Shown: in pieces, positions 1,629 to 64,000 of the stretch
Layout: every line of letters begins with the position of its first letter
Position numbering within the stretch: position 1 is the first letter of the stretch
Source: Sphyrna mokarran
Lineage: Eukaryota
Assembly (NCBI GenBank): GCA_024679065.1
Contig: JAGIQG010000077.1
Span: forward strand, 62,001 to 126,000
Length of the DNA: 64,000 bases
Reading direction: 5' to 3'
Translations under genes and position numbers: made by a program
Notes under the pieces: generated by a model
Seen by the model: the letters and a program-made list of their open reading frames with translations, nothing else
Databases searched by the model: none
What the model was told of the DNA's origin: nothing

Positions 1629-1884
1629 GTATAACGACTTAAGGCAGCAAGGGAGAAGCTGCTCTTCCGTCTGTTTGTACGTGATTTCAAACTTTGGTAT
1701 CATTTCCCCGATGAAAGAAGGTAGAATACATAGTGTCCGGGCTGAGTGGAGTCCTTGATTATGTTGACAGCTTCTCTAAGCCAGTGAGGAGTGTAGATTT
1801 ACTTCACTCCTTTTCGATTCTGTGACTCGATTTCGACCATCTGGATCCTCTATGTTTTCCAAACAGCCTGACATCTCCAATAAT

Positions 1885-3099: not shown

Positions 3100-3945
3100 C
3101 AGCTCAGATAAGTAACTACACACACACACATACACTCAGATATATATCTATATACAACGCTTAGATATTTATGTATATACAAACATAGACAAAAACGCTC
3201 AATATTTCTCTATATGCACACATTTACACGCACGCTCAGATATTTATCCATACGCACAAATAGACACACACACGCTCAAATATTTATTTATGTACACACA
3301 TAGACACACATTTGGCTCATATATTTACAGATACACAGACATAGACACACATTCTCAGATCTTATCTATGCGCACATGCAAGCTTAGTTATATGTATATA
3401 TATATATATTCTCAGACATATATATATATAATAACCTCAAGCTCATTTACATATCCATATACACACATTCATATGTATAACTATATACACACACACAAGT
3501 TCAGATATTTATCTATATTCACACGTTCGTATATATAACTATATGCACAGATGTTCAGATATATATTAGTACACACACGTCTAAGTCTGAGATCATCCAC
3601 GAACAGACTCAAGGTCTGCTTCTTCCTTGCTGCCTTCGGGCTTTTGAATGGACCTATCTTGCAGTAAGCTAATCTTTCTCTAAACGTTAACTATGTGTGT
3701 AACACAACATACTGTACTCTCTCCTTTCATTCTCCCCGTGAACTCTATGAACGTCATGTTTGTCAAAATAGTATACAAGAAAGTATACTTTTCACTGTAT
3801 ACTAACGCATATACAATAATACATCAAATGAAATCAAATGCACATATGCTCAGGGATATACCTGTGCGCGCACACTCAAATACACGCACACACACACGCA
3901 CACACACACACACAGACACACACACACACAGACACACACACTCAG
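3100..3945. repeat. CA/TA-rich low-complexity tract and (CA)n microsatellite (duplicated at 44300-45143)
   Basis: Direct inspection. Confidence 0.9.
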
Positions 3946-4041
3946 GCACACGTATATGCCAAGATGGCTGGGTTCTACTAAACTAATCCACTTGTCTCTA
4001 AAGTTGAATAGAAACCTTCATAATACACAGTAGCATCTCAC

Positions 4042-5433: not shown

Positions 5434-5884
5434 TTTGCACAGATGAGCAATATCTCCCTGTTTCCACTCACACCAGTTTGTTTTTGCTGAGAGGTCCGAG
5501 GACTGACCTGGTCTCAGACCCAGTTAATTGTTGCACTTTCTGATTGGGTGGAAACTGTGACAAGAGACAATGGAAAGTGTGACATAGTATTGATGACGTT
5601 GCACTGCTGAATGCATTTGACGCACTGTGATCGCCGCCTACGTGTCACAGGGTCAAGTGATAGAACATTCACACTGAGCTTGACTGGTTTGACCTACCGA
5701 GGGGATCACAAGCTAATCATTGTGCGGATATATGCAGAATATGTAAGTTACATTTTAATTTATTCTCAGGATATGCAATACGGCGGCTTAGTTGAGAAAA
5801 ATGAGGGCGGTGATCTCACTGAAAATTAGAGAACACTGAAACGCCTGGTAGAGTGGACATGGAGAGGATATTCAGCATAGAATA

Positions 5885-6230
5885 TAATAGAATCACTTCA
5901 TCTCAGAAGGAGGCCATTTCAGCCCTTAGAGGTTGCACTGACAATGACCGCAGCCAGGCGATATATCCGTAACGTATCTTACACTCTGAGCTCCCCTCCT
6001 CCCTCCACCTCTCCACCCCCCCAACTCCCGACACGAAAGGACAATTTAGCACGGCCAATCCAACAAACCCATACAACTTTGGATTGTGGGAGGAAGCTGG
6101 AGCAACGACAGGAAACCCATGCAGACACTGGGAGAATGTGCAAAATCAACACAGTCACCCAAGACCGGAATTGAACCCGAGTCCCTAAGTGCTGTGAAGT
6201 AGCAGTGCTAAAAGCTGTGTCACTGTCCAT
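5885..6230 (-). mobile_element. HE1-type V-SINE upstream of the receptor promoter (duplicated at ~47083-47428)
   Basis: Head, V-domain and tail in reverse orientation. Confidence 0.8.
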
Positions 6231-8437
6231 TAGTTGGAGAGACTCGGCTTCGAGTGCACAGACTCATAGTGAAGGGTTGACCCTTTCGCACCAAGAGAAG
6301 GGATTCCTTCAACCAGAGAGACGTTAATATGTGGAATTCATTGCCACAAGAGGCTGTGAAGGCCATGTCATTGAGCGTATTTAAAACAGAGATAGGTAGG
6401 CTCCTGTTGGCAAGTGTTTCAAAGGTTTAGAGGAAAAGGCGGGAGAATGGGGTTGAGAAGCATATCAGCCATGATCGAATGGCAGAGCAGACTCGATGGG
6501 CAGAATGGCGTAATTATGGTCCTTTATCCTGTGGGCGTATTGCTCAGCAACATGTATGATTGATTGGTGGCATTGAGTTGTCATTGTAGAATGTATTGTC
6601 TATATTATAGAAGTGTACAACACTTCGATGTTGTGCTGAACATGACGGAAGTTAAATTTATCCCTTTTGCCTGACCTTGATCCATATCCCTATGTTTCTT
6701 GCATATTCATGTCCTTATCTAAAAACCCCTTAAACGCCCCTATCAGGCCTGCCTTCAACACCACCTCAGACAGCGCGTTCCAGACTACTACCACTCTGTG
6801 TAAACAATTTGCTCCTCACATTTCCTTTGAACTTTCCCCTCCGATTTAAGTCCATGCTCCTTAGCATTTGATATTTCAAATTTGGCGAAACATATTTTGA
6901 ATGCAAACTCTTATAAATTTTACACACTTCTATCAGGTCTCCCCTCAGCCTTCAACGCTCCAATGAAAACAACTTTTGCAACTTTCCTGTGGTTGTCCAT
7001 GTGCTATATCAATAATGCTAAATACGGAGCGAGGACCATCATTTTGACCATGCTGCAGTGAAGGAACGACAATAAGTTTCCAACATATTGCCTCTGATTG
7101 GGAGGGGAGTTACTGGAAATGGTGTACCCACGAGTCCACCCTCTTTGTCCTTCAGGACCAATAAGGTGTGGATTTGCAAAGAGAATGACAGGAATGTAGG
7201 TTGAATATAGTAGTATGCACTATGATCCATTCTGAAAAAGGGCTTTAGTTTTACAATAATTGATGTAGAAACATTGGCAAAATAAGCAAGAAGAGGCCAT
7301 TTAGCACTTTGAACCTGCTCTGCCATTCGTTTCGGTCAAGGCTGATCATCAAATTCAATGCCCTGAATTCCCCCTTTCCCCCATATTCCTCTTTCGACCT
7401 AAAAGCTACTACTTCGAATTCCTCAAAGTCCATCTTGAAATCACAAAACTTTTTGGACCCACCAACAGTCTGTGGTAGTGAATTTCACACATTGGCCACT
7501 CCCTGGGTGAAGACTTCTCTCTCCATCACAGTTGTAAAAGATTTTCCCCTTATTCTCAAACAATTACCAGTAGTTTTGGACATCCTCACACTCAGCAACA
7601 TTCTTTTTTACCGACTCTCTCTAAACCTGATGCAACTTTAAACGTTTCAACGGGACGCCCTCTCACTCTCCTAAACTCTGAAGAATTCAATCCAAACAAA
7701 TTTAGTCTCTCCTCACTTGACAGACCTGTCAACTCAGCAATCATCCTGGTGCACCTTCACTGTCCTTCCTGTAAAGCAAGGACACGCTTCCCTCAGATAA
7801 GGGCAACCAAAATTGTACACAGCACTCCAGACTTTTTTTTTTGAAATCACGTAATGATTTTGGCCTCAACTACTTTGTGAATTAATCTGCGTATCTTTTA
7901 CTTGTCTTCCAAATTGGATGTTGAATAAACACAAGGACATGATGTCACATTCATGAGGATAGCATACATAAGATCATTCACGCAATAGGCTAGTTTTTCT
8001 TCATTGTACCAAAGCTGGGAACAGGCAGTCTGCTGTTTGCGGTTCCAAGCTGAGAGGTAAGGTGTGTCCTCCCTAGGCAGCTCTGTGTGTGCAGTACCTC
8101 AACTGTGAAAACAAGCAAACCACTGACAGCTTCTCGCCTGAAAAAAATTCCATAAGTGATGTAAAGTGGATAGAATCTTGGCTCGCGACTTGCACCCCTC
8201 GATATCCTCTGCACCCCTCAGAACATTTGGGCCGTCCTTGTAAGGGTAGAAGCTAGGAGCCGTGGCAGAGACAATGCGCCTCTTTGCTGTCACACCAAAC
8301 CCTCTGTTACAGAGTCGACTGAAACGCTTCATTTTCATTCTAGGTCATGCACATATGCAGGACAGTTCAGGCAGTCAGTTCCCAGTAGTCAGAAGCCCAT
8401 CTACAAATTCATTCTACCAATTTCTTCATTTTAAAGG

Positions 8438-8720
8438 AGGAGCGATGGCTGAGTGGTATTATCGCTGGACTCTTAATCCGAACACTCAAAAGCTGTTCTG
8501 GTGACCCAGGTTCTAATCCTGCCACGATAGCTGGAGGCATATGAATTCAATAGAAGATATCTGGAATTCAAAGTCTACTGGTGACCATACAACCATTTCT
8601 TATTGTCAGGGAAAACCCCCCAAACTTCCTTAATACCGTTTAACGAAGGGAATCTGCTCTCCATATCTGTACTGGCCTACATGTGACTCCGGATACACAG
8701 CAATGTTGTAGCTGGCAGCT
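8438..8720 (+). mobile_element. SacSINE1-like Deu-SINE (duplicated at ~49639-49921)
   Basis: tRNA-like head followed by the Deu-type core gaagggaatctgc...ggcctacatgtgactcc. Confidence 0.7.
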
Positions 8721-9215
8721 AGGTCCCATGGATATGTGACCCTTTTGTGGCAACGTGCGTTCTCCATCATTGTACTGAAGATTTTGTGACATGGGTTCCT
8801 CAGGGGCCTTCGAGAATTTAGACGTTTCACTGAATTCACTGCAGAACTAGGACATGTTTCCAATGACAGAATCCAACAAGCATCAACATTTGCCCCATTA
8901 ACAGTTCCAAGTGTTAGAATATATGCATAATAACCTTTTGCAATAACTGCCACATTGATCGGGAATCTATTCTTTATTCTCATTGGGATTTGAAGTCTTA
9001 AGATAGCTGATAAGGTGACGGCTGATGTTCAGCAGGCACATTTTACAATTAATGTTTTGTTTTAATTTGTATTGGTTTGAAACACCACTTGTAATTCGTT
9101 TGCTCCTCCCCTCCCCCGACTGGAAATCTGAGTGAACGGATCCGTCAAGGGAAAGTGAGCAAATGATCCATTTCATAATGTTGACCAGTAACTTCGTCAC
9201 TCTTTTGGTCGAGAA

Positions 9216-9462
9216 CTTCAACTTTCTTGTGTCCAGATCACCAGCAATCTATCCTAGTCCCTTCATGACGAAGATATGGTTAGGGAAGTTCACCAACGGC
9301 TCTACTTCCTCAGATTGCTAAGGAAATTTGGCATTTTTGCTAGGCCTCTCACCAACTTTTACAGATGCATCACCGAAAACACCCTTTCCGGATGTCTCAC
9401 AAGTTGGTACGGCTCCTGCTCTGACCAACGCTGCAAAAAACTACAAATGGTTGTGAATGAGG
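9216..9462 (+). mobile_element. Rex1/Babar-like LINE 3' ORF fragment (duplicated at 50417-50663)
   Basis: QRLYFLRLLRKFG...FYRCITENTLSGCLTSWYGSC. Confidence 0.8.
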
Positions 9463-10294
9463 TCATCTGCATTTTATTGTTATCAGATAATTTAATCAAA
9501 TCTGATGAACTCATTTATCTGCCGTATTGGCACTTGCTGGAATAGTCTGGGGTCCATCATCCGCTGGACACTTTTCGATGAAGTTTGTTAAACAGCTTCA
9601 TCCTTGCATTTTGCACTGATGAGCTGGGTTCCCTGTCATTGAGCTTCGAAATATGTTTGAAGATTCCTAACCTGTTAACTATTGCATTTAATACCTCCAA
9701 TCCCGGCAGGATTGCTGTTGACTATGATCTCCTCATTCTGGGGCCATTTAACTCTGTCTATCGGATGCTGTGTTCTCTGTTTGTGTCGCAAGTATTCCCA
9801 TGCTGTACTTTAACGACATTGCGTTTTATTTTTAAGGTCCTCCCCCCGTCAGTGCATCCTTCAAGTTGATTTCACGATGGAGGACTATTGATGCACGAGC
9901 TGAGGTGGACAATATGAGGCAAATAGCAGAATGTTTCCTTGCCCATGGATGTGCTGTTGGCAAGTAATGTCTTGTGCTCCAGAGAAGATGTTGGGATCTC
10001 GATGCGTACATCTGTAATTCTATCTCCGTTCAGCTTTTGCAGTACAATAGCGCCACCTCAGGAATGGTGTTGGTAATGTCTAGGACTTCCTCTGCCGGAT
10101 GTGATTTCCTGAGTATGACAGTTTGCAGACTTTGGTTTTCCTCCTCGAGTTCGGGGTCGGCGGGTTTTGTTGGGAGGGGGGCGGGCAGGAAATGGGGCGA
10201 GTTCAGGAGGGGTATGGGTAGAGAATGCATTTCCTCTAAACTTGGAAAAGGCCCCTCAGATGATATTAAGATCTACTTTGAAGAGTCAACAGCG

Positions 10295-10394
10295 NNNNNN
10301 NNNNNNNNNNNNNNNNNNNNNNNNNNNNNNNNNNNNNNNNNNNNNNNNNNNNNNNNNNNNNNNNNNNNNNNNNNNNNNNNNNNNNNNNNNNNNN
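10295..10394. other. Assembly gap (100 N, typical unknown-size placeholder)
   Basis: Run of N. Confidence 1.
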
Positions 10395-12935: not shown

Positions 12936-14780
12936 ATTACTGATTAATCTGAGTGCTTGGGCACAGTACATTTGGTCCCCAACTCCTAATAATCTACCAT
13001 TGATTCCTAGAACGATAAAGTTGCCCTGTGATGTGAGACTGAAAAAATATGTAGAACGGGAAAATGAGACTTCAACGCATTGAAAGGCAATATTTTGAAG
13101 GATAGTGACATGCCAGGTCCGAAAGACTTTGATTCCCCCTTGGCTGGAAAGTATGTCACATAACCTCAGGGTAAAGGAATTGCCATTTCAGAATGCGAGG
13201 AGAAGAATTTTCTGCCCCTAGAGGATAATGCATCTTTAGGCTCTCCCCAAGTGACCTGTCGATGTTCAGTCACTCATAACACGGTCCCTGGAGAAGTGAG
13301 ACAGTGGTGCTATCCACTGTGTCACCATGCCGCCCAGGAACTCAGTCAATGGACTAAAAGTCAACGGTGACTGGCACAAGCAGGATCAATGAATGTAATG
13401 TTGTTACTGGAAAATAAGGGCTCAAACTATGGATCAAACACCTAGGCTCAAAATTCAAATGTGTAAAAAGTATATTGTGTAAAAAGTATTTTGAGTCGGA
13501 GCTATTCGCTCTGTTATGAAACAAGAAACTAGTTCGTATTTTGAAGTCACAAATATTAGAGGAACATTTATTCAAATGTTCCAATTAGACATCCCAGCAG
13601 AATCAGCTGCTTACGTGAAACAAAGCCCTAATTAGGATACGGTTTAGAGCACGGTTTTCCATGATACTTAATGTAAAGCGTCAACATGCACCACCCTAAC
13701 AGACTGAAGACACTTATAAACTGCCAGTGGATCAACTCTTTCGTTTTTGGGAGTTCGAGTTGATCCAAAGAGATTAGTAAAACAGTAAATTCAATATTCC
13801 AGTTTCCCTACAAGACTCTATAGCAATTATTCCAACAGGGAACGTTCAAAAGAATGAGGAGGAACAGAGCTGGATGACCAGAGCTAGATCCATATATCTT
13901 AATGTGAAGGCCCTGGTAGAACGAATTAGTGCCACAACAGGTTGGGAGGTGAACAGAGAGGGCGCTCCTTCCGGAATGGTTGAAATGCTCTGCAAAAAAA
14001 GCTATGACCTTTAAAGTCAAGGAAAATAGAGATTTTCAGCAGAGAACGGGGCTTGGCAGCAGATAGAGAAAGACAGAGGGGCGTTGGCTGTGGCCACGCT
14101 TGCATGGTGTGACCTTAAGAGAGACGCCTCACTCACAGCCCTTTCGGGGACTGTGCAAAAGCAGCAATCGCTGGTCAGATTCTGACGACGTTGAGACAGA
14201 AAGTTGTCAGAGACTATAGCTCAATGTGGTTTTTCGCTTGTTTACAGTTGAGATGCTACGCCTACCCAACTGCCTCCAGAGATCAGACGCTGAGACACAA
14301 TGTAAAACCGCAGACAGTTGGTCATTCGAGATAGGTTTAGCTGCACAGAGAACCTGCTGATCTACAATTAAGCTATATTACAGGAAACTATTCAAAAGAA
14401 TATTTGTCACAATTTGGAAGCATTGCTAGTGTTGATTATAATTTGCAGAAACCCCCTCTGATTCACAACAGACGCACTCATTTCATCTGCAGGTCAGAGG
14501 AACTGCAGTTTGTACATTCTACACTGAAGCAGCAAATCACTGAGATTTCCAACATAATTTCAATCAAATTACATATAATTCATACAATATTTTCACTTCT
14601 CTTTCTTCGGCAGAAATCATGTGCAATCTCTTTACAGAATGAATTAGATTGAACACAATTACATTACAACATGCTGGCACACAGCCCCTGGAACTTGGCT
14701 TCGATTCCTGCCTGGTCACTGTCTGCCTGGAGTCTCAATGTTCTGCTCATGTCTGCGCAGGTTTCCTCTGGGTGTTCGGT

Positions 14781-16617
14781 TAGAACATAGAACATAGAAC
14801 ATTACAGCACAGAACAGGCCCTTCGGCCTTCGATGTTGCGCCGACCAATATAAAAAGCAATGACCCTCCAAACGAAACCATTCCCTTCTCTTCCATATAC
14901 TTATCAACTAACCTCTTAAAACGCCACCAAACTTGGCGCATCTACAACTGCCGCAGGCAGGGCATTCCACTCCCGAACCACCCTTTGGGTAAAGAACCTG
15001 CCTCTGATATCCTTCCTATAACTATCACCCCTTAATTTAAAGCTGTGTCCCCTCGTGCTAGCTTTTTCCATCCTAGGAAAAAGGCTATCACTGTCCACCC
15101 TATCTAAACCTCTAATCATCTTATATCTTTCGATTAGGTCCCCTCTTAGCCGCCTCCTTTCTAACGAAAACAACCTCAAATCCCTCAGCCTCTCTTCATA
15201 AGACCTGCCCTCCATACCAGGCAACATCCTGGTAAATGTCCTCTGTACCCTCTCCAATGCCTCCACATCTTCCTTATAGTGTGGGGACCAGAACTGCACA
15301 CAACACTCCAAGTGCGGCAGCACTAGAGTTTTGTACAGTTGCAACATGACGTTGCGGCTCCGAAATTCAATCCCTCTACCAATAAAAGCCAAGACTCCAT
15401 ATGCCTTCCTAACAACCTTCTCGACCTGACTGCCTACTTTCAGGGGTCTATGCACATACATACCAAGATCCCTCTGTTCATCTAGACTACTAAGAATCCT
15501 ACCATTTGCCCTATACTCTACACATTTATTATTTCTGCCATAGTGCATTACCTCACACTTTTCCACATTAAACTCCATTTGCCACCTCTCGGACCAGCTC
15601 TGCAACTTGTCCAAGTCCCTCTGCAAACTATAACACCCCTCTTCACTATCTACCACTCCACCGACTTTAGTGTCATCTGCAAATTTACTAATCCATCCCT
15701 CAATACCCTCATCCAGATCATTTATAAATTTACAAACAGCAGGGGCCCCAAAACAGACCCCTGAGGTACACCACTTGTCACCGAACTCCACGATGAATAT
15801 CTCCCATCAACCACCACCCTCTGTCTTCTATCTGCTAGCCAATTCCTAACCCAATTAGATAAATCACCCTCTATCCCATACATCTGCATTTTCTGCAGAA
15901 GTCTTCCATGGGCCACCTTATCAAACGCCTTACTAAAGTCCATATATACCACATCAACCGCCTTACCCCCATCCACCTCTTTGGTCACTTTTTCCAAAAA
16001 CTCAATGAGGTTAGTAAGGCACGACCTACCCTTCACAAAACCATGCTGACTATCCCCAATCAATTCATTTCTCTCTAAATAACTATAAATCCTATCCCTA
16101 CTTATTCTCTCCAATACTTTGCCCACAACAGAAGTAAGACTCACTGGCCTATACTTCCCTGGAAGGTCTCTCTTCCCCTTCTTGAACAATGGGACCACAT
16201 TCGCCATCCTCCAGTCCTCCGGAACCACACCCGTAACCAACGAGGACCTGAAGATCAGAGCCAGAGGCTCTGCAATCTCCTCTCTTGCCTCCCCGAGAAT
16301 CCTAGGGTAAATCCCGTCCGGCCCAGGGGACTTATCCAACTTCAAACCCTCGAGAATTGCTAGCACATCCTCCCTATCTACTACAATACTTCCCAATTTG
16401 CAACCCTGTACCTCAGTGTTCTCCATAGCTACATTTCCAGCACTCTGCGTGAATACCGAAGAGAAATATTTATTCAGTGCCTCACCAATCTCTTCAGGCT
16501 CCACGCACAACTTCCCCCTGCTGTCTATGACTGGCCCTAATCTTGCCCTAACCAATCTTCTATTCTTAACATATCTAAAGAAAGCTTTAGGATTCTCCCG
16601 AATCCTATCAGCCAAAG
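14781..16617 (-). mobile_element. CR1/HER1-like LINE copy A, 5'-truncated ORF2 (RT), frameshifted, inserted in an HE1 SINE
   Basis: ORFs contain [36 protein letters not shown] and KFADDTK; (AGAACAT)n tail at 14781; SINE halves on either side with GGTT duplicated. Confidence 0.97.
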
Positions 16618-17139
16618 AGGTTTTCCTCTCACAGTCTGAAAATGTGCAGCCTTGGTGGATTGCTCCTGCTAAATTGCCTCTTCGTGTCCAAAGATGCAAC
16701 GTTTAGCCTGATTAGCCACGTAAATTATCCCTTAGTGTTCAAACATATGCAGGGTAGGTGGATTGACCAGACCCAACTCCCTTTCATGCTTTTCAATGTA
16801 CCGGATAGAAAGATCGATAATGCTAAATTCATAGGATAGGATCATAGAACACCTAATATGTAGATTTCCCCTTTAGTGTCCCGAGGTGCGTAGGCCAAGT
16901 GGATGTTCCGCATCTTCTAGGGGCACTTTATCATTCTGGTATTCCAGCTAATCTGTCCGTGTCGTCTGGAGGTCGAACTCTCACTGTTTGCATGTGCACT
17001 GGCAGGAATACTGAACATGATCAGAGACTGCCTGCAGTGCAGAAGGAAGCACTGATTTACCCAGATCCACATCACCCACCTTATCTCCATAACAACACAC
17101 AATGAACACTAAAAATTCACCTAGAAGATACATCGTTGG

Positions 17140-17490
17140 CACTAATGGGCAATTTAACATCCACACATCTTTGGATACTAAGGAGCAATTTAGCATGGCC
17201 AATCCACCTAATTTGCACATCTTTAGCCATTAAGGGACAATTTAGCACGGTCAATCCACCTAATCTACACATATTTAGACACTAAGGGGCAATTTGGCAT
17301 GGCCAATCCATCTAACCTGCACATTTTGGTCACTAATGTGCAATTTAGCATGGCCAATCCACCTAATTTTCACATCTTTAGACAGTAGGGGACAATTTAG
17401 ATTGGCCAATCCACCTAATCTACGCATAGTTAGACACTAAGGGGCAATTTGGCATGGCCAAACCACCCTAACCTACACATCTTTGGACAT
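17140..17490. repeat. ~56-bp minisatellite derived from the V-SINE core (also 20368-20730, 24093-24362, 11530-11755)
   Basis: Repeated ggcaatttagcatggccaatccacctaa...cacatctttggacactaag. Confidence 0.9.
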
Positions 17491-17951
17491 CACCATTTTT
17501 GAAACAACAATGCACTTCATTCTTGCTAAGGAATACACATCCCGCGAATGAATTGAAATTTAGATGAAATAGAAAACATATCACCAAACAATTAATGTAC
17601 TGTAACACTCCCTGAAGACATGCTGCCTGTTCATCGCTATGACGCACAGTCGATGACCACACTATGTCAAGTGAATGTGGAATTCACCAGCACACCGCAC
17701 CAAACTTGTGTCATAGTTTCCATTGCACGGCCCGTCATAAATTCCACTGTATCTGAAAGAGACCAAGCCCTCTGGGTTTGAGCTAAGGTCAACCTGCAGC
17801 CATTAACCCAACAGAAACAAACAGGTCCACAAAACATGTAGAAATAGCCCGTAAAGATATCCAAAGAATTGTTATATGCAAGATTCATTTTCTTGCTGTT
17901 GCAGGTTTATGTTGAGTAAGAGAGGTAAGAACTGTGTGCTAGAATAAGTAT

Positions 17952-19778
17952 TAGAACATAGAACATAGAATATTACAGCGCAGTACAGGCCCTTCGGCCT
18001 TCGATGCTGCGCCGACCATTATAGAAAAGCAATGACCCTCCAAACTAAACCATTCCCTTCTCTTCCATAAACTTATCAACTAACCTCTTAAACACCACCA
18101 AACTTGGCTCATCTACAACTGACGCAGGCAGGGCATTCCACTCCCTAACCACCCTCTGGGTAAAGAACCTACCTCTGATATCCGTCCTATTACTATCACC
18201 CCTTAATTTAAAGCTGTGTCCCCTCGTGCTAGCTTTCTCCATCCTAGGAAAAAGGCTATCACTGTCCACCCTACCTAAACCTCTAATCATCTTATATGCT
18301 TCGATAAGGCCTCCTCTTAGCCGCCTCCTCTCTAACGAAAACAACCTCAAATCCCTCAGCCTCTCTTCATAAGACCTGCCCTCCATACAAGGCAACATCC
18401 TGATAAACCTCCTCTGTACCTTCTCCAATGCCTCCACGTCTTTCTTATAATGTGGGGACCAGAACTGCACACAATACTCCAAGTGCGGCCGCACTAGAGT
18501 TTTGTACAGTTGCAACATGACGTTGCGGCTCCGAAATTCAATCCCTCTACCAATAATAGCCAAGACTCCATATGCCTTCCTAACAACCTTCTCGACCTGA
18601 ATGCCTACTTTCAGGGATCTATGCACATACACACCAAGATCCCTCTGTTCATCTAGACTACTAAGAATCCTACCATTTGCCCTATACTCTACACATTTAT
18701 TATTTCTGCCATAGTGCATTACCTCACACTTTTCCACACTAAACTCCATTTGCCACCTCTCGGCCCAGCTCTGCAACTTGTCCAAGTCCCTCTGCAAACT
18801 ATAACACCCCTCTTCACTATCTACCCTCCACCGACTTTAGTGTCATCTGCAAATTTACTAATCCATCCTTCAATACCCTCATCCAGATCATTTATAAAAA
18901 TTACAAACAGCAGGGGCCCCGAAACAGACCCCTGAGGTACACCACTTGTCACCGAACTCCACGATGAATATCTCCCATCAACCACCACCCCCTGTCTTCT
19001 ATCTGCTAGCCAATTCCTAACCCAATTAGCTAAATCACCCTCTATCCCATACATCTGCATTTTCTGCAGAAGTCTTCCATGGGCCACCTTATCAAACGCC
19101 TTACTAAAGTCCATATATACCACGTCAACCGCCTTACCCCCATCCACCTCCTTAGTCATTTTTTCAAAAAACTCAATGAGGTTAGTAAGGCACGACCTAC
19201 CCTTCACAAAACCATGCTGACTATCTCCAATCAATTCATTATTCTCTAAATAACTATAAATCCTATCCCTAATTATTCTCTCCAACGCTTTTCCCACCAC
19301 AGAAGTAAGACTCACTGGCCTATAATTCCCTGGAAGGTCTCTCTTCCCCTTCTTGAACAACGGGACCACATTCGCTATCCTCCAGTCCTCCGGAACCACA
19401 CCCGTAACCAACGACGACCTGAAGATCAGAGCCAGAGGATCTGCAATCTCCTCTCTTGCCTCCCAGAGAATCCTAGGGTAAATCCCGTCCGGCCCAGGGG
19501 ACTTATCCAACTTCAAACCTCGAGAATATCTAGCACATCCTCCCTATCTACTTCGATACCTTCCAGTTTGCTACCCTGTACCTCAGTGTTCTCCATAACA
19601 TCACCCTGCGTGAATACCGAAGAGAAATATTTATTCAGTACCTCTCCAATCTCCTCAGGCTCCACGCACAACTTCCCACTGCTGTCTATGACTGGCCCTA
19701 ATCTTGCCCTAACCAATCTTCTATTCTTAACATATCTAAAGAAAGCTTTAGGATTCTCCCGAATCCTATCAGCCAAAG
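17952..19778 (-). mobile_element. CR1/HER1-like LINE, tandem unit 2 (hybrid)
   Basis: RT ORF fragments 18045-19860; same 5' truncation point as copy A. Confidence 0.97.
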
Positions 19779-21193
19779 AGGTTTTCCTCTCACAGTCTGA
19801 AAATGTGCAGCCTTGGTGGATTGCTCCTGCTAAATTGCCTCTTCGTGTCCAAAGATGCAACGTTTAGCCTGATTAGCCACGTAAATTATCCCTTAGTGTT
19901 CAAACATATGCAGGGTAGGTGGATTGACCAGACCCAACTCCCTTTCATGCTTTTCAATGTACCGGATAGAAAGATCGATAATGCTAAATTCATAGGATAG
20001 GATCATAGAACACCTAATATGTAGATTTCCCCTTTAGTGTCCCGAGGTGCGTAGGCCAAGTGGATGTTCCGCATCTTCTAGGGGCACTTTATCATTCTGG
20101 TATTCCAGCTAATCTGTCCGTGTCGTCTGGAGGTCGAACTCTCACTATTTGCATGTGCACTGGCAGGAATACTGAACATGATCAGAGACTGCTTGGTTAT
20201 ACTGGGTGTGGGGGTGCTACTGTGCGCTGTGTTTGGGATGGTTTTCTGTGTGGGTGCCTGCAGTGCAGAAGGAAGCACTGATTTACCCAGATCCACATCA
20301 CCCACCTTATCTCCATAACAACACACAATGAACACTAAAAATTCACCTAGAAGATACATCGTTGGCACTAATGGGCAATTTAACATGGCCAATCCACCTA
20401 ATCCACACATCTTTGGATACTAAGGAGCAATTTAGCATGGCCAATCCACCTAATTTGCACATCTTTAGCCATTAAGGGACAATTTAGCACGGTCAATCCA
20501 CCTAATCTACACATATTTAGACACTAAGGGGCAATTTGGCATGGCCAATCCATCTAACCTGCACATTTTGGTCACTAATGTGCAATTTAGCATGGCCAAT
20601 CCACCTAATTTTCACATCTTTAGACAGTAGGGGACAATTTAGATTGGCCAATCCACCTAATCTACGCATAGTTAGACACTAAGGGGCAATTTGGCATGGC
20701 CAAACCACCCTAACCTACACATCTTTGGACATCACCATTTTTGAAACAACAATGCACTTCATTCTTGCTAAGGAATACACATCCCGCGAATGAATTGAAA
20801 TTTAGATGAAATAGAAAACATATCACCAAACAATTAATGTACTGTAACACTCCCTGAAGACATGCTGCCTGTTCATCGCTATGACGCACAGTCGATGACC
20901 ACACTATGTCAAGTGAATGTGGAATTCACCAGCACACCGCACCAAACTTGTGTCATAGTTTCCATTGCACGGCCCGTCATAAATTCCACTGTATCTGAAA
21001 GAGACCAAGCCCTCTGGGTTTGAGCTAAGGTCAACCTGCAGCCATTAACTCAACAGAAACAAACAGGTCCACAAAACATGTAGAAATAGCCCGTAAAGAT
21101 ATCCAAAGAATTGTTATATGCAAGATTCATTTTCTTGCTGTTGCAGGTTTATGTTGAGTAAGAGAGGTAAGAACTGTCTGCTAGAATAAGTAT

Positions 21194-23023
21194 TAGAACA
21201 TAGAACATAGAACATTACAGCGCAGTACAGGCCCTTCGGCCTTCGATGCTGCGCCGACCATTATAGAAAAGCAATGACCCTCCAAACTAAACCATTCCCT
21301 TCTCTTCCATAAACTTATCAACTAACCTCTTAAACGCCACCAAACTTGGCGCATCTACAACTGCCGCAGGCAGGGCATTCCACTCCCTGACCACCCTCTG
21401 GGTAGAGAACCTACCTCTGATATCCGTCCTATAACTATCACCCCTTAATTTAAAGCTGTGTCCCCTCGTGCTAGCTTTCTCCATCCTAGGAAAAAAGGCT
21501 ATCACTGTCCACCCTATCTAAACCTCTAATCATCTTATATGTTTCAATAAGGCCTCCTCTTAGCCGCCTTCTTTCTAACGAAAACAACCTCAAATCTCTC
21601 AGCCTCTCTTCATAAGACCTGCCTTCCATACCAGGCAACATCCTGGTAAACCTCCTCTGTACCCTCTCCAATGCCTCCACATCTTTCTTATAATGTGGGG
21701 ACCAGAACTGCACACAATACTCCAAGTGCGGCCGCACTAGAGTTTTTGTACAGTTGCAACATGACGTTGCGGCTCCGAAATTCAATCCCTCTACCAATAA
21801 AAGCCAAGACTCCATATGCCTTCCTAACAACCTTCTCGACCTGACTGCCTACTTTCAGGGATCTATGCACATACACACCAAGATACCTCTGTTCATCTAG
21901 ACTACTAAGAATCCTACCATTTGCCCTATACTCTACACATTTATTATTTCTGCCATAGTGCATTACCTCACACTTTTCCACACTAAACTCCATTTGCCAC
22001 CTCTCGGCCCAGCTCTGCAACTTGTCCAAGTCCCTCTGCAAACTATAACACCCCTCTTCACTATCTACCACTCCACCGACTTTAGTGTCATCTGCAAATT
22101 TACTAATCCATCCTTCAATACCCTCATCCAGATCATTTATAAAATTTACAAACAGCAGGGGCCCCAAAACAGACCCCTGAGGTACACCACTTGTCACCGA
22201 ACTCCACGATGAATATCTCCCATCAACCACCACCCTCTTCTTCTATCTGCTAGCCAATTCCTAACCCAATTAGCTAAATCACCCTCTATCCCATACATCT
22301 GCATTTTCTGCAGAAGTCTTCCATGGGCCACCTTATCAAACGCCTTACTAAAGTCCATATATACCACGTCAACCGCCTTACCCCCATCCACCTCCTTAGT
22401 CATTTTTTCAAAAAACTCAATGAGGTTAGTAAGGCACGACCTACCCTTCACAAAACCATGCTGACTATCTCCAATCAATTCATTATTCTCTAAATAACTA
22501 TAAATCCTATCCCTAATTATTCTCTCCAACGCTTTTCCCACCACAGAAGTAAGACTCACTGGCCTATAATTCCCTGGAAGGTCTCTCTTCCCCTTCTTGA
22601 ACAACGGGACCACATTCGCTATCCTCCAGTCCTCCGGAACCACACCCGTAACCAACGACGACCTGAAGATCAGAGCCAGAGGATCTGCAATCTCCTCTCT
22701 TGCCTCCCAGAGAATCCTAGGGTAAATCCCGTCCGGCCCAGGGGACTTATCCAACTTCAAACCCTCGAGAATATCTAGCACATCCTCCCTATCTACTTCG
22801 ATACCTTCCAGTTTGCTACCCTGTACCTCAGTGTTCTCCATAACATCACCCTGCGTGAATACCGAAGAGAAATATTTATTCAGTACCTCTCCAATCTCCT
22901 CAGGCTCCACGCACAACTTCCCACTGCTGTCTATGACTGGCCCTAATCTTGCCCTAACCAATCTTCTATTCTTAACATATCTAAAGAAAGCTTTAGGATT
23001 CTCCCGAATCCTATCAGCCAAAG
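21194..23023 (-). mobile_element. CR1/HER1-like LINE, tandem unit 3 (hybrid)
   Basis: RT ORF fragments 21287-23105; same 5' truncation point as copy A. Confidence 0.97.
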
Positions 23024-23564
23024 AGGTTTTCCTCTCACAGTCTGAAAATGTGCAGCCTTGGTGGATTGCTCCTGCTAAATTGCCTCTTCGTGTCCAAAGA
23101 TGCAACGTTTAGCCTGATTAGCCACGTAAATTATCCCTTAGTGTTCAAACATATGCAGGGTAGGTGGATTGACCAGACCCAACTCCCTTTCATGCTTTTC
23201 AATGTACCGGATAGAAAGATCGATAATGCTAAATTCATAGGATAGGATCATAGAACACCTAATATGTAGATTTCCCCTTTAGTGTCCCGAGGTGCGTAGG
23301 CCAAGTGGATGTTCCGCATCTTCTAGGGGCACTTTATCATTCTGGTATTCCAGCTAATCTGTCCGTGTCGTCTGGAGGTCGAACTCTCACTGTTTGCATG
23401 TGCACTGGCAGGAATACTGAACATGATCAGAGACTGCCTGCAGTGCAGAAGGAAGCACTGATTTACCCAGATCCACATCACCCACCTTATCTCCATAACA
23501 ACACACAATGAACACTAAAAATTCACCTAGAAGATACATCGTTGGCACTAATGGGCAATTTAAC

Positions 23565-23724
23565 ATAGAACATAGAACAATACAGCACAGAACAGGCCCT
23601 TCGGCCTTCGATGTTGTGCCGACCAAAATAAAAAGCATGCCCCTCCTAACTAAACCATTCCCTTCTCATCCATATACTTATCAACTAACCTCTTAAACGC
23701 CACCAAACTTGGCGCATCTACAAC
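23565..23724 (-). mobile_element. Short CR1 3'-end insertion unique to unit 3
   Basis: Tail + 3'UTR; absent at the homologous AACAT|GGCC site in unit 2. Confidence 0.9.
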
Positions 23725-23810
23725 AGGCCAATCCACCTAATCCACACATCTTTGGATACTAAGGAGCAATTTAGCATGGCCAATCCACCCAATTTGCACA
23801 ATTTGCAATT

Positions 23811-24092
23811 TGCTAGCACGAGGGGACACAGCTTTAAATTAAGGGGTATGAGTTATAGGACGTATATCAGAGGTAGGTTCTTTACTCAAAGAGTGATTAG
23901 GGAGTGGAATGCCCTGCCTGCAGCTGTTGTAGATGCGCCAAGTTTGGTGGCGTTTAAGAGGTTAATTGATAAGTATATGGAAGAGAAGGGAATGGGTTAG
24001 TTGGGAGGGGCATTGCTTTTTATTTTGGTCGGCACAACATCGAAGGCCGAAGGGCCTGTTCTGTGCTGTAATGTTCTATGTTCTATGTTCTA
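23811..24092 (+). mobile_element. Short CR1 3'-end insertion unique to unit 3
   Basis: Encodes ASTRGHSFKL...KYMEEKG, then 3'UTR and (TTCTATG)n; absent in units 1 and 2. Confidence 0.92.
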
Positions 24093-24823
24093 TCTTTAGC
24101 CATTAAGGGACAATTTAGCACGGTCAATCCACCTAATCTACACATATTTAGACACTAAGGTGCAATTTGGCATGGCCAATCCATCTAACCTGCACATTTT
24201 GGTCACTAATGTGCAATTTAGCATGGCCAATCCACCTAATTTACACATCTTTAGACAGTAGGGGACAATTTAGATTGGCCAATCCACCTAATCTACGCAT
24301 AGTTAGACACTAAGGGGCAATTTGGCATGGCCAAACCACCCTAACCTACACACCTTTGGACATCATCATTTTTGAAACAACAATGCACTTCATTCTTGCT
24401 AAGGAATACACATCCCGCGAATGAATTGAAATTTAGATGGAATAGAAAACATATCACCAAACAATTAATTTACTGTAACACTCCCTGAAGACATGCTGCC
24501 TATTCATCGCTATGACGCACAGTCGATGACCACACTATGTCAAGTGAATGTGGAATTCACCAGCACACCGCACCAAACTTGTGTCATAGTTTCCATTGCA
24601 CGGCCCGTCATAAATTCCACTGTATCTGAAAGAGACCATGCCTCTGGGTTTGAGCTAAGGTCAACCTGCAACCATTAACCCGACAGGAACAAACAGGTCC
24701 ACAAAACATGTAGAAATAGCACGTAAAGATATCCAAAGAATTGTTATATGCAAGAATCATTTTCTTGTTGTTGCAGGTTTATGTTGAGTAAGAGAGGTAA
24801 GAACTGTCTGCTAGAATAAGTAT

Positions 24824-26843
24824 TAGAACATAGAACATAGAACATTACAGTGCAGTACAGGCCCTTCGGCCTTCGATGCTGCGCCGACCATTATAGAAAA
24901 GCAATGACCCTCCAAACTAAACCATTCCCTTCTCTTCCATAAACTTATCAACTAACCTCTTAAACGCCACCAAACTTGGCGCATCTACAACTGCCGCAGG
25001 CAGGGCATTCCACTCCCTAACAACCCTCTGGGTAAAGAACCTACCTCTGATATCCGTCCTATAACTATCACCCCTTAATTTAAAGCTGTGTCCCCTCGTG
25101 CTAGCTTTCTCCATCCTAGGAAAAAGGCTATCACTGTCCACCCTATCTAAACCTCTAATCATCTTATATGTTTCAATAAGGTCTCCTCTTAGCCGCCTTC
25201 TTTCTATCGAAAACAACCTCAAATCCCTCAGCCTCTCTTCATAAGACCTGCCCTCCATACCAGGCAACATCCTGGTAAACCTCCTCTGTACCCTCTCCAA
25301 TGCCTCCACGTCTTTCTTATAATGTGGGGACCAGAACTGCACACAATACTCCAAGTGCAGACTGTCAGGCAAGGAGGAAATGGTCGAGTAAGGGAACCTT
25401 GGTGTACGAAAAAAGTTGATTCGCTGGTTAAAAGGAAAAAGGAGGCTTATGTCAGGATGAGGCTTGAAGGCTCGGTTAGTGCAATGGATAGCTATAGATT
25501 AGCCAGGAGGGAGCTAAGGAGTGAGTTGAGGAGAGCTAAAAGGGGACACGAGAAGACTTTGGCTGATAGGATCAAGGAGAATCCTAAAGCTTTCTTTAGA
25601 TATGTTAAGAATAGAAAATTGGTTAGGGCAAGATTAGGGCCAGTCATGGACAGCAATGGGAAGTTGTGCGTGGAGCCTGAAGAGATTGGAGAGGCACTGA
25701 ATAAATATTTCTCTTCGGTATTCACGCAGGGTGATGTAAATGTAGTTGTGGAGAACACTGAGGTACAGGGCTGCAAACTGGAAAGTATTGAAGTAGATAG
25801 GGAGGATGTGCTAGATATTGTTGAGGGTTTGAAGTTGGATAAGTCCCCTGGGCCGTTCGGGATTTACCCTAGGATTCTCTGGGAGGCAAGACAGGCGATT
25901 GCAGAGCCTCTGGCTCTGATCTTCAGGTCGTCGTTGGTTACGGGTATGGTTCCGGAGGACTGGAGGATAGTGAATGTGGTCCCATTGTTCAAGAAGGGGA
26001 AGAGAGACCTTCCAGGGAATTATAGGCCAGTAAGTCTTACTTCTGTTATGGGCAAAGTATTGGAGAGAATAATTAGGGATAGGATTTATAGTTATTTAGA
26101 GAGAAATGAATTGATTGGGGATAGTCAGCATGGTTTTGTGAAGGGTAGGTCGTGCCTTACTAACCTTATTGAGTTTTTTGTAAAAGTGACCAAAGAGGTG
26201 GATGGGGGTAAGGCAGTTGATGTGGTATATATGGACTTTAGTAAGGCTTTCGATAAGGTGGCCCATGGAAGGCTTCTGCAGAAAATGCAGATGTATGGGA
26301 TAGAGGGTGATTTAGCTAATTGGATTAGGAATTGGCTAGCAGATAGAAGACAGAGGTGGTGGTTGATGGGAGATATTCATCGTGGAGTTCGGTGACAAGT
26401 GGTGTGCTTCAGGGGTCTGTTTTGGGGCCCCTGCTGTTTGTAATTTTTATAAATGATCTGGATGAGGGTATTGAGGGATGGATCAGTAAATTTGCAGATG
26501 ATACTAAAGTTGGTGGTGTGGTAGATAGTGAAGAGGGGTGTTTTAGTTTACAGAGTGACTTGGACAAGTTGCAGAGCTGGGCCGAGAGGTGGCCAATGGA
26601 GTTTAATGTGGAAAAGTGTGAGGTAATGCACTTTGGCAGGAATAATAAATGTGTAGAGTATAGGGCTAATGGTAGGATTCTTAATAGTGCTGATGAACAG
26701 AGGGATCTTGGTGTATTTGTGCATAGATCCCTGAAAGTAGGCAGTCAAGTCGATAAGGTTGTTAAGAAGGCATATGGAGTCTTAGCTTTTATTGGTAGGG
26801 GGATTGAATTTCGGAACCCCAACGTCATGTTGCAACTGTACAA
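24824..26843. mobile_element. CR1 copy B with 5' inversion (3' part on minus, 24824-25358; inverted 5' part on plus, 25359-26843)
   Basis: The two halves are consecutive parts of ORF2 in opposite orientation, with 15 bp missing between them. Confidence 0.93.
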
Positions 26844-36924: not shown

Positions 36925-36996
36925 TCATTTCCGGGTCTGCTTTTTTGACTTTTTTTCCAATGCAGCCAAATCCAGGGAGGCATAGAGAGGTCCACC
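36925..36996 (-). CDS. Exon 8, terminal cytoplasmic exon GGPLYASLDLAALEKKSKKQTRK*
   Basis: TCTCAG acceptor, with an in-frame alternative acceptor 6 nt upstream (exon start 37002); YASL tyrosine motif typical of last exons of IgSF inhibitory receptors; TGA stop. Confidence 0.85.
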   Translation of the reverse strand, partial: GGPLYASLDLAALEKKSKKQTRK

Positions 36997-39900
36997 CTGA
37001 GACTGGGAAATATATTCAACAGAAATGATTAAAATAAAGGACTGTTTCCAAAAATTCATTTCAATGTATTTTATTATAATGGGTTCAATGCACTCACCTG
37101 TATTCTATGTTGCGTTTTCAAGTTCGCCTCTGTTTGACCATGATCCCCTGTGCGTTAAGAGTTAAACTATGAATTGAAACGTCACACAAGCTATAGAATC
37201 TTTAAGGACATAGAAATATCAGTCGCCAATGACCATTGTATGTCAACAGTTTGAAGGCTACTTAATAGAGTCACAAGTAGGCTACATTAACTCTGCAAGG
37301 AAGATACTGTAAAAATTTCCTCCTTGCCACATCCTAGCAGTTGTTTTCCTGTTCTGAGGGAGAATTTAGCATCGCCAACTCACCTGAGTAGCACATCGTT
37401 TGGACTGTGGGAGGAGCACACGGAAGAAACACACGCAAACACAGGGAGAACACATAGACTCGCCATAGACAGATACCCAAGCCAGGAATCGAACAAAGGT
37501 CCCTGATGTTGCGGGAGTGCAGTGCGAACCACTGTGCAACCGTGCCGCTGCTTTAGGTTGCTAGGCTACAATCATTAACATACAGCCCACCTAAATTTTG
37601 TCAACACGACAGATATTCCACAATTCTTCAGAGGCAGTTAGATATGACATTGTAGGTGAAGTCGATAGGATTGCATTCACTGGGGTTTAGAAGTGTGAGA
37701 GGGAACTTCCAGGAACCTTATAAAATTCTGATAGGATTCGATAGGACAGACTGAAGATCAATGTTCCCGATGGTTAAGAAGTCCAGAACGAGGGATAATA
37801 GTTTGAGGTTACTGGGGAATCCTTTTAGAACTAAGGTGAGGAGAAATGTTTTCACCCAGAGGGTGGTGAATACATGGATTCACTACCACAGAATATAGTT
37901 GAGGCCAAAACATGATGTAATTTCAGGAAGAAATTAGATATACGTCTTGGGACTAAAGGAATCAAATGGTATGAGGGGATGGAGGATCAGGATGTTGAGT
38001 TTAATTATCTGCTGTGGTCAAAATGAACAGCAGAGCAGGTTCGAAGGTCCGAATGGCATACTCCTCCTTCTAGTTTCTATGTTAACAAATGTAGACAAAC
38101 AAGTGGCAATTAACAGTTAACTGTAGCATCCTCCGTAAAAGAGGCTGCAAACGAATCAGTCTTTTTGCTAATCCCGGAAACAGTCTTCTCAGGAAGAAAG
38201 CATAATTGTTTCCATCACATATGTTATTCTTGTGTTGTTTTGTGCCAATGAATACAAGGCCAAAAGCCTCGATAATATGATTTTGTTTGACAAAGTTTAA
38301 GTACTCCATTTATTGAAATTTTCTTTCAATCATGTCTCTACAGTTAACTGTCAGTACCAATCAACTGGTGCACTCATCATGAAGTCATAGTTCGTGTAGG
38401 TAGTACATGATGTAGGTAGGACAAGGGAAGGGGATATTAAACAGAAATTTATGGAGTTGGGGTGGAAGCTTAGGACCAAAACAGACAGAGTGGTTATCTC
38501 TGGACTCTTTCCTGTGCCACGGGGTAGTTTAGAGAAGAACAGAGAGAGGGAATGTTTGAACTCGTGGCTGCGGGGATGGTGCAGGAGGGAGAGGTTCAGG
38601 TTCCTGAACAACTGGGACTCAATCTGGGATAGAGGTTAGTAGATAAGTTTATGGACGAAATGGGAATGGTTTAGGTGAGTGGGTCATTGCTTTTTCCTAA
38701 TTGGTCGGCGCAGCAGAACAGGCCGAAGGGCCTGTTCTCCGCTGTAATGTTCTATGTTCATAGCAACACTTCACCAATCAATTTCCACTTCATTCTTTTT
38801 TTAATTCTGACATTTAATCGCTGCCAACATTCCAATGAAACTTACCCATTTGTCGCTCCTTATGTCCGTCTCGCTGCCTTCTCTGGCTCAAGCTAAAATT
38901 GGATATGGGAAAAGAACATCAAACAAACGTTATATCTGGCCTATCACATCTCAGATGCTGCACATTGTTGAAAGTAGAATTGTCTCGAGATCTTATATAA
39001 ATAATCGAAAATAGAGGAACACATCGTGGAATCAGTTTTCGGATTGAAATAGGTCTGACAAAATATAAGATAGAGAAAGAGGGGACAATGAACAATGTTA
39101 AACTTTGCACACTGTTCTCTTACTCACGTGTCATTCCGGGATCCTATTTCTCTGTCTTCTAAAATAGAAGAATATACGATTAGCTTATTAAAAACTGCAA
39201 AGAGGAAATCATATTGAGGAAAACAAAGAAATTAAAGTGTCTCTAATAACCATTAATTTTCACCTGATCTGCAGTGTTTACAAATCCAAATGGAAATAAG
39301 GACCGATAGCAGAATCAATATGACCAGGACACTGACTCGTACAGGAACCGTCTCTCCGCACCATTCTATAGAGAAAAAAGAACACTTAGAAACTGCCACC
39401 GGTCAAATCACTCTTCTCCGGGGTTCTCTAACCAAATTAAAAATGCAGAGTCACCAAAATAGGGGATGAATGTGGAAAATGAAACAATGCTGGTGGGAAA
39501 GAGAGTGGAGAGTGAACACACAGAATGGAATTGATGAGACAATATTTGCTTGTGGAGATCGATTAAATGACAGCACTGTCAGAGTTGTCCTAAATTCACA
39601 GTGTATCAGATTGCTTTAGACCATAAGATCAGGAGACACAGGATCAGAACTAGGTTACTCGGCCCATGAGTCTGCACCACCATTCCATCATGGCTGATAT
39701 ATTTCTCACCCCCATTCTCTTGCCTTTTCCCATACCTTACCAGGATGTTGCCTGGTACGGAGGGCAGGTCTTATGAAGAGAGGCTGAGGGATTTGAGGTT
39801 GTTTTCGTTAGAAACGAGGTGGCTAAGTGGGGACCTTATCGAAACATATAAGATGATTAGAGGTTTAGATAGGGTGGACAGTGATAGTCTTTTTCCCAGG

Positions 39901-61650: not shown

Positions 61651-64000
61651 TTTCGGAAAATTCCTGAACATATTAGGGGAGAGCAGTGCCAGTCAAAGTA
61701 GAACGTTTGGGGAAGTCGATATTGAGTTGACATTATTCTCCTGAGAGCAGAGAAACTTGGGTGGAAATATGGAAGAGATGTGAAACACCATGGAAGCGGT
61801 GTCTGAGGGTGTGAATATTTGATCATAAAATACTCGACATAAGGATATCGAGCAGCTAATATTTTAATATAATTTTTAAGGATGAAATGGGTATTTAAAT
61901 AATGTAGTAATGATAGTTTCAAAGTGAATGGCTAATAAGCCTGGTAGTATTAAATTGCATAACTCAAGGACTGATTGTGTCAGTAAGTTAGCGAAAACAA
62001 ATTTAACCAGAATGATAGTGGGATAGCTTGAGCTTGAGTTTGGACATCACTCGGCACAACATCGAAGGGCCGAAGCACTTGTTCTATGTTGTACTGTTCT
62101 ATAGTCTACATAACTTAAACTTGGGATGATTACGAAATCGGGCATTGATTAAAGGGACAAATAATGTAATTTTGTACTGGGTACAGAGATTCCAACCTGG
62201 AAATTCAGCCGGATGATCGAGCCCTCCTCCAGCAGATTAACTAGATTTGACTTCCCCACACAACGCGGAGTATTAAAATTGTTGTTGTGTTTTGCTAAAC
62301 AACAAGGAAGCCATTTTGTTTAAGGAGTGAACCCACTTACCCGTGTTATCAGACGGGAATATGGATTTCGGATAATGTACTTTGAGGATTAACTACCAAT
62401 ATTCAATTGGATGTCCAAAACTAGGGTAGATCCAGTTAAGTTTGGGGCACATTTAATCTTGCAGATTGCATGTTCATGCAGCAGAAATCCCAAACCAGTT
62501 GCTCACATTCTGCCCTTAATACCATCTCCAACGCAAACAAACACACCCTAAAAATGTTCCTGTAAATTAGCTGAAGAGCCGCCGGAAACATATTTGTTCC
62601 AAATCCTGATAAAAACCGGAATCACACAGGTAACATTTCGTATTGAAAACCTTCTTCTATATTTAGTTAACTCGGATATTGATACATTTTTAACTATTTC
62701 TTGCACAATTACAGTAGAAAATGCAGAATAGAATTTTAAAACCCACTGTGAGAAATTAGAAACAAAGAGAGGTGAAATTTCACTGCAGGCGATATTCCAT
62801 CTTAGAATGGTGGAAATTAACAGAAAGTTCATTTCCGCTTTGGTCGCCATCATATTAATGAGCCCCCAGTCCGCCCGAATTTGCACCGGTCGCACTTTTG
62901 GAATTCTCCTTGCAAAAATAAGAATGTTTCCACGAGACTATAAATTCCGGAAATACACGGTGAGTTCTCTCTGTCCCTCCCTTTTCTCTCCAGTTAAAAT
63001 TTTGGATCCTCATTAAAGGCCAGGCGAGCGTAAAGTGTCTGTGGATGAAAAGAGATCTGTTAGCGTGACACACACCATTATTATAGTGACAGGTGAGACC
63101 ATTGAGTTTCCCCAATCCTTCGCCTCCCCCCCACTGCATTCAATCGGTTCATGGCTGCAAGGTAACTCAACTCACAATCACCCACTAATATTGACTAATC
63201 CTTAATCCCTCCCTAATATAAATCTAACTGTCACATCTCTGGAGTTCCAATTGCCCAATGCTCTATATAGCTTTTTAGTGACCAGAATTGCATTTCGCGT
63301 TCTATGAAGATTTATTATTATCACATATGTGAGTATGCATTGAAATGTAATGATTCTTGCACACTGTGCAGACAAAGTGCATCATGTGAGGAGAATGAAA
63401 GGAGAAGGTGCAGATTATAGTGTTACAGTGATAGTCAGGCTTGAAGAGAAAGTTCAACTTAATATGCGGCAGGTCAATTCTAATGTCTGATGGCAGCAGG
63501 GAAGAAGCTGTCCTTGCGTGACCTCAGAATTACATATCTTTTTCCCGAAGGAAGAAGGTGGAGAAATAAAACATATCCAGGGTGGGTGGCGTTCTTGATA
63601 ATGCTGGCTGTTTATATACAAACATAGAAGATACCAGCAGGGAGAGGTCATTTGGCCCTTCGAGTCTACTCCAGCATTCATTATAATCATGATTGATCGT
63701 CCAGCCCAATCGCTAATTCCTACTTTCTCCCATAACCTTCGCTCCCAAGTGCTGTATCCAGCTGCCTGTTGAATACATTCAATATTTTGGCATCAACTAC
63801 TTCCTGTGGTAATGAATTCCACAGGCTCACCGAGTGAAGAAATGTCTCCTCACCTCGGTCCTAAATGATCTACCCCAAAACCGCAAACAGTGACCCCTGA
63901 TTCTAGACTCCCTCCACTATCGGGAACATCCTTCCTGTATTTACTCTGTTTAGCCCTGATAGAATTTTATAAGTCTCTGTGAAATCACCCCCCATTCGTC

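Follow-up and report, generated by a model that had tools for sequence, protein, structure and literature searches.

The window, a stretch of 64,000 nucleotides of contig JAGIQG010000077.1 from Sphyrna mokarran, is vertebrate DNA with many fragments of CR1-type LINEs, and its top protein relatives are from sharks. The interval from 36925 to 39365 holds the last five exons of a receptor gene on the minus strand. The complete gene has eight exons in the order leader, V, C1, and transmembrane (TM) segment with tail; it encodes 341 amino acids, its frame is open across all 341 codons, and all seven introns are of the GT-AG type. Exon 1 (46577 to 46631; all coordinates on the minus strand) carries the ATG and the leader peptide and has a GT donor in phase 1. 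Exon 2 (45660 to 45992) encodes a V-set domain (Pfam V-set, E = 1.2e-10) with the G strand in the same exon, that is, germline-joined, and exon 3 (45240 to 45569) encodes a C1-set domain (Pfam C1-set, E = 1.1e-9). Stalk Cys242, Arg249 (codon CGA, 39337 to 39339), and the TM helix, with an uncharged 19-residue core from V250 to C268 (39280 to 39336), are encoded by exon 4 (39264 to 39365). Three small cytoplasmic exons follow, of 31 nt (exon 5, 39128 to 39158), 47 nt (exon 6, 38846 to 38892), and 50 nt (exon 7, 37098 to 37147). Exon 8 (36925 to 37002), the last, is in phase 0 and encodes GPLYASL, with Tyr323 at 36984-36982, a lysine-rich end, and the stop codon.

With the three small exons spliced in, the cytoplasmic tail has 73 residues, a single tyrosine (Tyr323, in GPLYASL), and the C terminus EKKSKKQTRK-stop. 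A preliminary description, made from the letters of the sequence, had read the TM segment as VPV-R-VSVLVILILLSVLISIWIC and had placed the only tail tyrosine in GPLYASL, ahead of a lysine-rich end. Both readings were borne out, the first by the TM exon (39365-39264), which reads WCGETVPV-R-VSVLVILILLSVLISIWIC-KHCRS, and the second by splicing. Just four of 16 combinations of exon skipping and acceptor choice reach YASL in frame, by way of c1+c2+c3 or of c3 alone. Read contigs of a related organism, which were aligned at 80% likeness and come from runs guessed to be RNA, joined at 37002/37098, 37146/38845, and 38892/39128, as expected for the predicted tail introns, and also at 38892/39264 with a 31-letter exon in between; all joints of exons 5 to 8 and the 3′ joint of exon 4 are thus represented in these contigs. 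A 263-letter contig of run X1, the type of which was guessed, matched the 3′ UTR with zero differences. The leader-V-C1 and C1-TM joints were placed by splice signals and by the same layout in RefSeq-modelled shark relatives. Two repeat-derived candidates alone passed a scan for an additional exon between C1 and TM, and both were rejected.

The V domain is a single VJ-type exon with a degenerate J motif (LQNG), in contrast to the FGxG of a second gene type (type B, see below) and of some paralogues. No RSS-like site with four or fewer mismatches was found in positions 45501-46100 around the V exon. A PDB search matched only antibody and T-cell receptor (TCR) V domains, and the AlphaFold model of one relative (P0001) was set aside because its mean pLDDT was 38. 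Homologues were found in sharks, rays, chimaera, lungfish, paddlefish, amphibians (caecilian and Xenopus), and reptiles (turtle, lizard, and alligator). RefSeq shark models (for example XP_078095903.1 and XP_038643129.1) have the same architecture, a C1 domain 55-73% identical, and a GGP-x-YASL tail, but those models have Gly, Ala, Phe, Tyr, or Val at the position of the arginine. Their RefSeq names, 'immunoglobulin kappa light chain-like' and 'uncharacterized', do not describe their function.

PRARP and VJC1 are non-rearranging V-C1-TM genes of two linked types, with a stalk Cys and a tail holding a single tyrosine motif; PRARP was reportedly described by Fu et al. in 2019 and the amphibian VJC1 genes by Ohta et al. 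in the same year. Both names appear in portions of PMC10751288 and PMC11599192. The receptor gene resembles them in having a single-exon VJ-type V without RSS, a C1 domain, a stalk Cys, a TM segment, and a tyrosine tail, and the shark cluster likewise has two linked gene types. It is unlike them in that its shark cluster has grown to about 70 C1 matches, Arg-bearing members with short tails among them, and in the degenerate J motif of its V domain. In these shared features the shark family fits PRARP/VJC1, and it is a candidate relative of those genes. A literature search, which left most subscription papers outside its reach, found no description of this shark family.

The distribution of related genes was analyzed across the genome. 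The C1 exon had 113 genome matches among 150 candidates scored, and 71 of these lay on contig C1027 between 0.6 and 2.85 Mb: 34 of type A, the type of the receptor gene, and 37 of type B. A same-strand B match was found directly upstream of 20 of the 34 A matches (shuffled mean 10.1; none of 10,000 shuffles as high). A stalk Cys occurs in both types, and type-B tails carry TxYxxL. Mean pN/pS over 20 distinct intact A genes was 0.67 for the V domain (1.05 for the CDR3-like loop) and 0.50 for C1. Modules appear to have been swapped among the genes: compared with the receptor gene, those at 2.09 and 2.30 Mb are 94-95% identical in TM and tail and 85-88% in V.

The window itself holds a second copy of the receptor gene (1 to 10291, minus strand; 99.7% identical to 41189-51492), in which leader, V, and C1 are present and TM and tail lie to the left of the window. 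This copy, spaced by 41.2 kb, stops at a 100-N stretch (10295-10394) and reflects either duplication in the very recent past or a haplotype or assembly duplicate. Its coding exons are identical to those of the receptor gene except for one base, and the open reading frame and splice sites were intact in all three copies checked. The contig of the window (C1404) also matches the end of C1027 at 97.6-100% identity. Upstream of the receptor gene lies a type-B V-C1-TM gene whose last exon, encoding TLYARL, is at 63000 to 63041 (minus strand); its other exons are to the right of the window. Its V exon contains an in-frame TGA in both assembled copies (L088:3137-3499 and L165:718-1080), so this nearest candidate partner of the receptor gene is probably a pseudogene.

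The placement of Arg249 in the membrane was examined with two hydropathy scales. Between Arg249 and a KHCR stretch lie 19 uncharged residues. The top-scoring 19-residue segment, V250-C268, excludes the arginine (Kyte-Doolittle 3.03; biological scale -4.3 versus -1.6 or higher when Arg249 is included, a scale that overstates penalties near helix ends). FcRγ- and ζ-like adaptor TM exons are present in the genome (C446:11.045 Mb and C335:17.365 Mb), and the adaptor Asp is 16 residues from the cytosolic border in both, which places Arg249, at 20 residues, four residues outside it. In portions of PMC1440944, the Arg of FcαRI is described as three positions outside the Fcγ Asp, and a construct in which this Arg stood in an otherwise polyleucine TM reached about 11% of wild-type assembly with Fcγ. 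The NxxR-TM motif is found in receptors using FcRγ, including LILRA2, NKp46, GPVI, OSCAR, FcαRI, and Xenopus XFL TM1 (parts of PMC2413239 and PMC6557307), and an excerpt of PMC13107469 treats assembly of NKp30 and NKp46 through the Arg as assumed by analogy. The receptor gene is like these in having an Arg near the outer TM end, and true NxxR TMs are found in catshark, horn shark, and two carpet shark family members. It is unlike them in that its context is V-P-V-R, where Val and Pro occupy -3 and -2 and Asn is absent, and in that the Arg is one residue further out, is unconserved, and is combined with a 73-residue tyrosine tail. Arg249 is 20 residues from the cytosolic border versus 17-18 in NxxR relatives and, by alignment, 17 residues before a conserved aromatic residue (Trp/Tyr) versus 16. 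At one residue from the NxxR register, weak binding of FcRγ or ζ by Arg249 is conceivable, and we judge it rather unlikely from the sequence.

Positions in the TM segment were numbered from the Trp of the WC motif as 1, which makes Arg249 position 9. Among 39 A-type TM loci in the genome (27 first found plus 12 added later, several being identical copies), four had Arg9, one had Gln9, five had Gly9 with Arg11, and 29 had no TM Arg; the census is partial, as no A-type TM exon turned up in six of 20 fetched flanks (L095, L096, L108, L109, L112, and L114) or in L094. The four Arg9 loci comprise the receptor gene and its tandem copy 41 kb away, a gene on C1027 whose V exon is identical and which is probably allelic to the receptor gene, and one diverged locus. 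They therefore amount to about two independent loci, and the Arg is kept in these two, which have diverged (V exons 88% identical). At long range, an Arg 17-20 residues from the border was found in none of 12 long-tailed shark A-type relatives (P0005, P0036, and P0038 having been added to the initial protein-match set), and one relative had an Arg at 22. The check proposed in the preliminary description, conservation of the Arg across orthologues and paralogues, therefore fails.

Arg at position 9 is encoded by CGA; the closest Gly copies have GGA there, and the Gln copy has CAA. In a tree of the TM exon with codons 9 and 11 masked (22 of 27 loci, five copies identical over the exon being omitted), the Arg9 and Gln9 loci formed one clade with support of 100/99, nested among Gly9 copies. 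This nesting makes GGA>CGA>CAA the shortest path and indicates that the Arg is recent; it was probably lost again in one sister copy via a CpG transition.

Conservation of the tyrosine motif was quite different. Each of the 30 last-exon loci retrieved through DNA similarity (of 33 matches) keeps Tyr and the Leu at +3, and synonymous variation is present. The ITIM consensus has Ser, Ile, Val, or Leu at Y-2, and at Tyr323 this residue is Pro, as the preliminary description had noted in calling the ITIM non-canonical. Tyr323 indeed departs from the strict consensus, and a weakened motif does not follow from this: Pro was found at Y-2 in 19 of 20 distinct last exons (from the 30 DNA-found loci and three found by motif) and in catshark, horn shark, smooth-hound, and epaulette shark relatives, with Val in sevengill. 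Pro is the fixed state, in sharks, of a conserved motif that gives no sign of decay. Across 40 representatives, Y-2 was S/I/V/L in 23, Thr in eight, and Pro in three. Because most carry S/I/V/L or Thr, the YASL motif is, as judged from these comparisons, ITIM-like by descent, with an old and fixed Pro. A literature search on the Y-2 rule found nothing.

In order to relate the two features, TM Arg and tail motif were scored across the family. Among 59 representatives with one clear TM, 10 had the Arg only, 39 YxxL only, one both, and nine neither (Fisher p = 1.3e-5); Arg was scored when it lay 11-20 residues ahead of the border, the 59 remained of 150 representatives once 91 had been removed because of their length or for want of a clear TM, and the rows are phylogenetically non-independent, presumed family members in which some short tails may be annotation truncations. 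A TM Arg is thus likely to be the activating signature of the family and a YxxL tail its inhibitory signature. The single representative with both has its Arg at distance 20, as in the receptor gene, and the two representatives with Arg at that distance split 1:1, P0092 with YxxL and P0105 without. N-x-x-R occurs in four shark relatives with short tails (P0008, P0016, P0017, and P0035); the short tail of P0008 holds an unrelated YxxV. The ectodomains of NxxR members group with long-tailed partners of the same lineage, a single NxxR clade being rejected (p-AU 5e-6), and this grouping is the pattern of paired receptors. The catshark RefSeq isoforms X2 and X4 (P0008 and P0010), which have consecutive accessions, differ as NxxR with short tail versus neutral TM with YASL, and their annotation may merge a receptor pair.

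Arginines have also arisen elsewhere in the hammerhead cluster. Besides Arg11, the five Arg11 loci have in common a mid-TM Gln, altered downstream splice sites, and a TM exon of 103 nt with a stop just past the helix, and the four of them in the tree formed a clade with support of 99/97. A single clade of Arg9 and Arg11/stop loci was rejected (p-AU 6e-5, or 0.027 when the Gln9 copy is added). One Arg11 locus, C1027:2405569-2411000 (L042 and L111), was seen to have an intact leader, V, and C1, and on its sequence it is the best candidate for a converted activating receptor, better than the receptor gene. A frameshift interrupts C1 in another Arg11 locus, and the fetched flanks of two more contained no intact A-type V-C1, so some may be pseudogenes. 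In module composition, the Arg11 genes are the reverse of the swapped genes above, with V 91-93% and the TM region 82% identical to the receptor gene. Three of 30 type-B TM loci also had an Arg, one of them with an early stop and another with a probable V frameshift. These Gly>Arg TM exons are L136, L137, and L139 (C1027:2.679, 1.987, and 0.622 Mb); L139 stops soon past the TM, and the last exons of all three are only about 73% identical to the type-B last exon of the window.

We favor, with fair but not strong confidence, a non-rearranging V-C1-TM receptor that is likely inhibitory through YASL and in which Arg249 is probably no adaptor site but a recent and incidental change at the outer surface of the membrane. 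In such a receptor, a ligand would bind the V domain, and phosphorylated Tyr323 would recruit SHP-1/2-type phosphatases. Through its stalk Cys the chain would pair by a disulphide bond with a second copy of itself or with a type-B chain (tail TxYxxL), and such a dimer would offer a second phosphotyrosine to tandem SH2 domains. YASL also matches the YxxΦ endocytosis consensus, and a receptor with a single tyrosine, and with a Y-2 Pro that in galeomorph sharks falls outside the ITIM consensus, might mainly serve uptake or act as a decoy with little phosphatase signalling. We consider this improbable, given an ITIM- or ITSM-type Y-2 residue in 31 of 40 representatives, ray and sevengill relatives included, and a paired pattern that points to signalling; the signalling and endocytic roles are in any case compatible. 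More improbable still is a silent locus, or one duplicated only in the assembly, with a protein irrelevant in vivo: the contig resembles an alternative copy of the C1027 end, the tandem repeat ends at Ns, and the adjacent B gene has its TGA in both copies, but the reading frame and splice sites are intact in the three copies checked and the same tail joints are used in relatives.

The preliminary description had proposed a dual-function receptor, or an inhibitory one converting to an activating one. KIR2DL4 is such a dual-function receptor, combining activating output with a tyrosine tail. For the receptor gene, Arg249 would have to snorkel to the Asp pair of FcRγ or ζ, so that an activating output is gained while the tyrosine tail is kept, which seems to us a doubtful reading. 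In its favor, the Arg lies at the outer TM end one residue from the activating register of the family, its offset of four from the adaptor Asp is close to the three of FcαRI/Fcγ (part of PMC1440944), both adaptor genes are present, and the Arg has been kept in two diverged loci. One well-placed basic residue can suffice, and such residues arose repeatedly through point mutation, according to the same portion of that paper; separate gains in the Arg11/stop clade and in type-B loci are consistent with this. Against it, the Arg is unconserved and Gln in a sister copy, the Asn at -3 is absent, a full 19-residue core lies past the Arg, and the tail is intact in a family in which Arg and YxxL are nearly exclusive. 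Dual signalling by the receptor gene is thus weakly supported; what stands of the proposal are the Arg and YxxL signatures of the family, the conversion-like alleles in the cluster, and the FcRγ/ζ-like exons. Activating KIR derive from inhibitory KIR (excerpt of PMC6557307), and the shark cluster is like them in the gain of a TM basic residue by point mutation inside a paired cluster. It is unlike KIR in its V-C1 ectodomain, and Arg with tail loss occurs in other paralogues, not in the receptor gene.

On the favored, inhibitory reading, the mixed design of the receptor gene dissolves once its paralogues are read, and the value lies in the family: about 70 TCR-shaped germline shark receptors, in paired inhibitory and NxxR-type forms, would extend to cartilaginous fish the NxxR module, which the literature consulted describes from amphibians to mammals. 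No NxxR-type member was found among the 39 TM loci, and the old activating module may thus be lost from the hammerhead lineage. A genome search with part of the P0008 TM, itself a weak search, gave four weak matches, all to known neutral TMs. The lineage may now be re-inventing the module through single-base changes to Arg that arose independently: at position 9 in genes that keep their tail, at position 11 in genes with a stop past the TM, and in type B. There is a small chance that the Arg9 clade marks the opening stage of a switch from inhibition to activation, before tail loss; if so, the cluster would be a natural series for how paired receptors flip polarity. In addition, Gly, Arg, and Gln occur naturally at a single TM position in the cluster.

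Several minor features were noted in and around the locus. Young CR1-type LINE copies, 93-98% alike, lie at 14780-26843, 39670-41103, and 59582-61649, with a 3.2-kb tandem repeat at 17029-23437. A 90-codon open stretch between LINE fragments (55946-56215, minus strand) has a coiled-coil-like look and no Pfam match, and is probably a mobile-element remnant. An A/B pair of the same family is located at C894:2.35-2.39 Mb, on a 26-Mb contig apart from C1027, and could anchor the synteny of the cluster.
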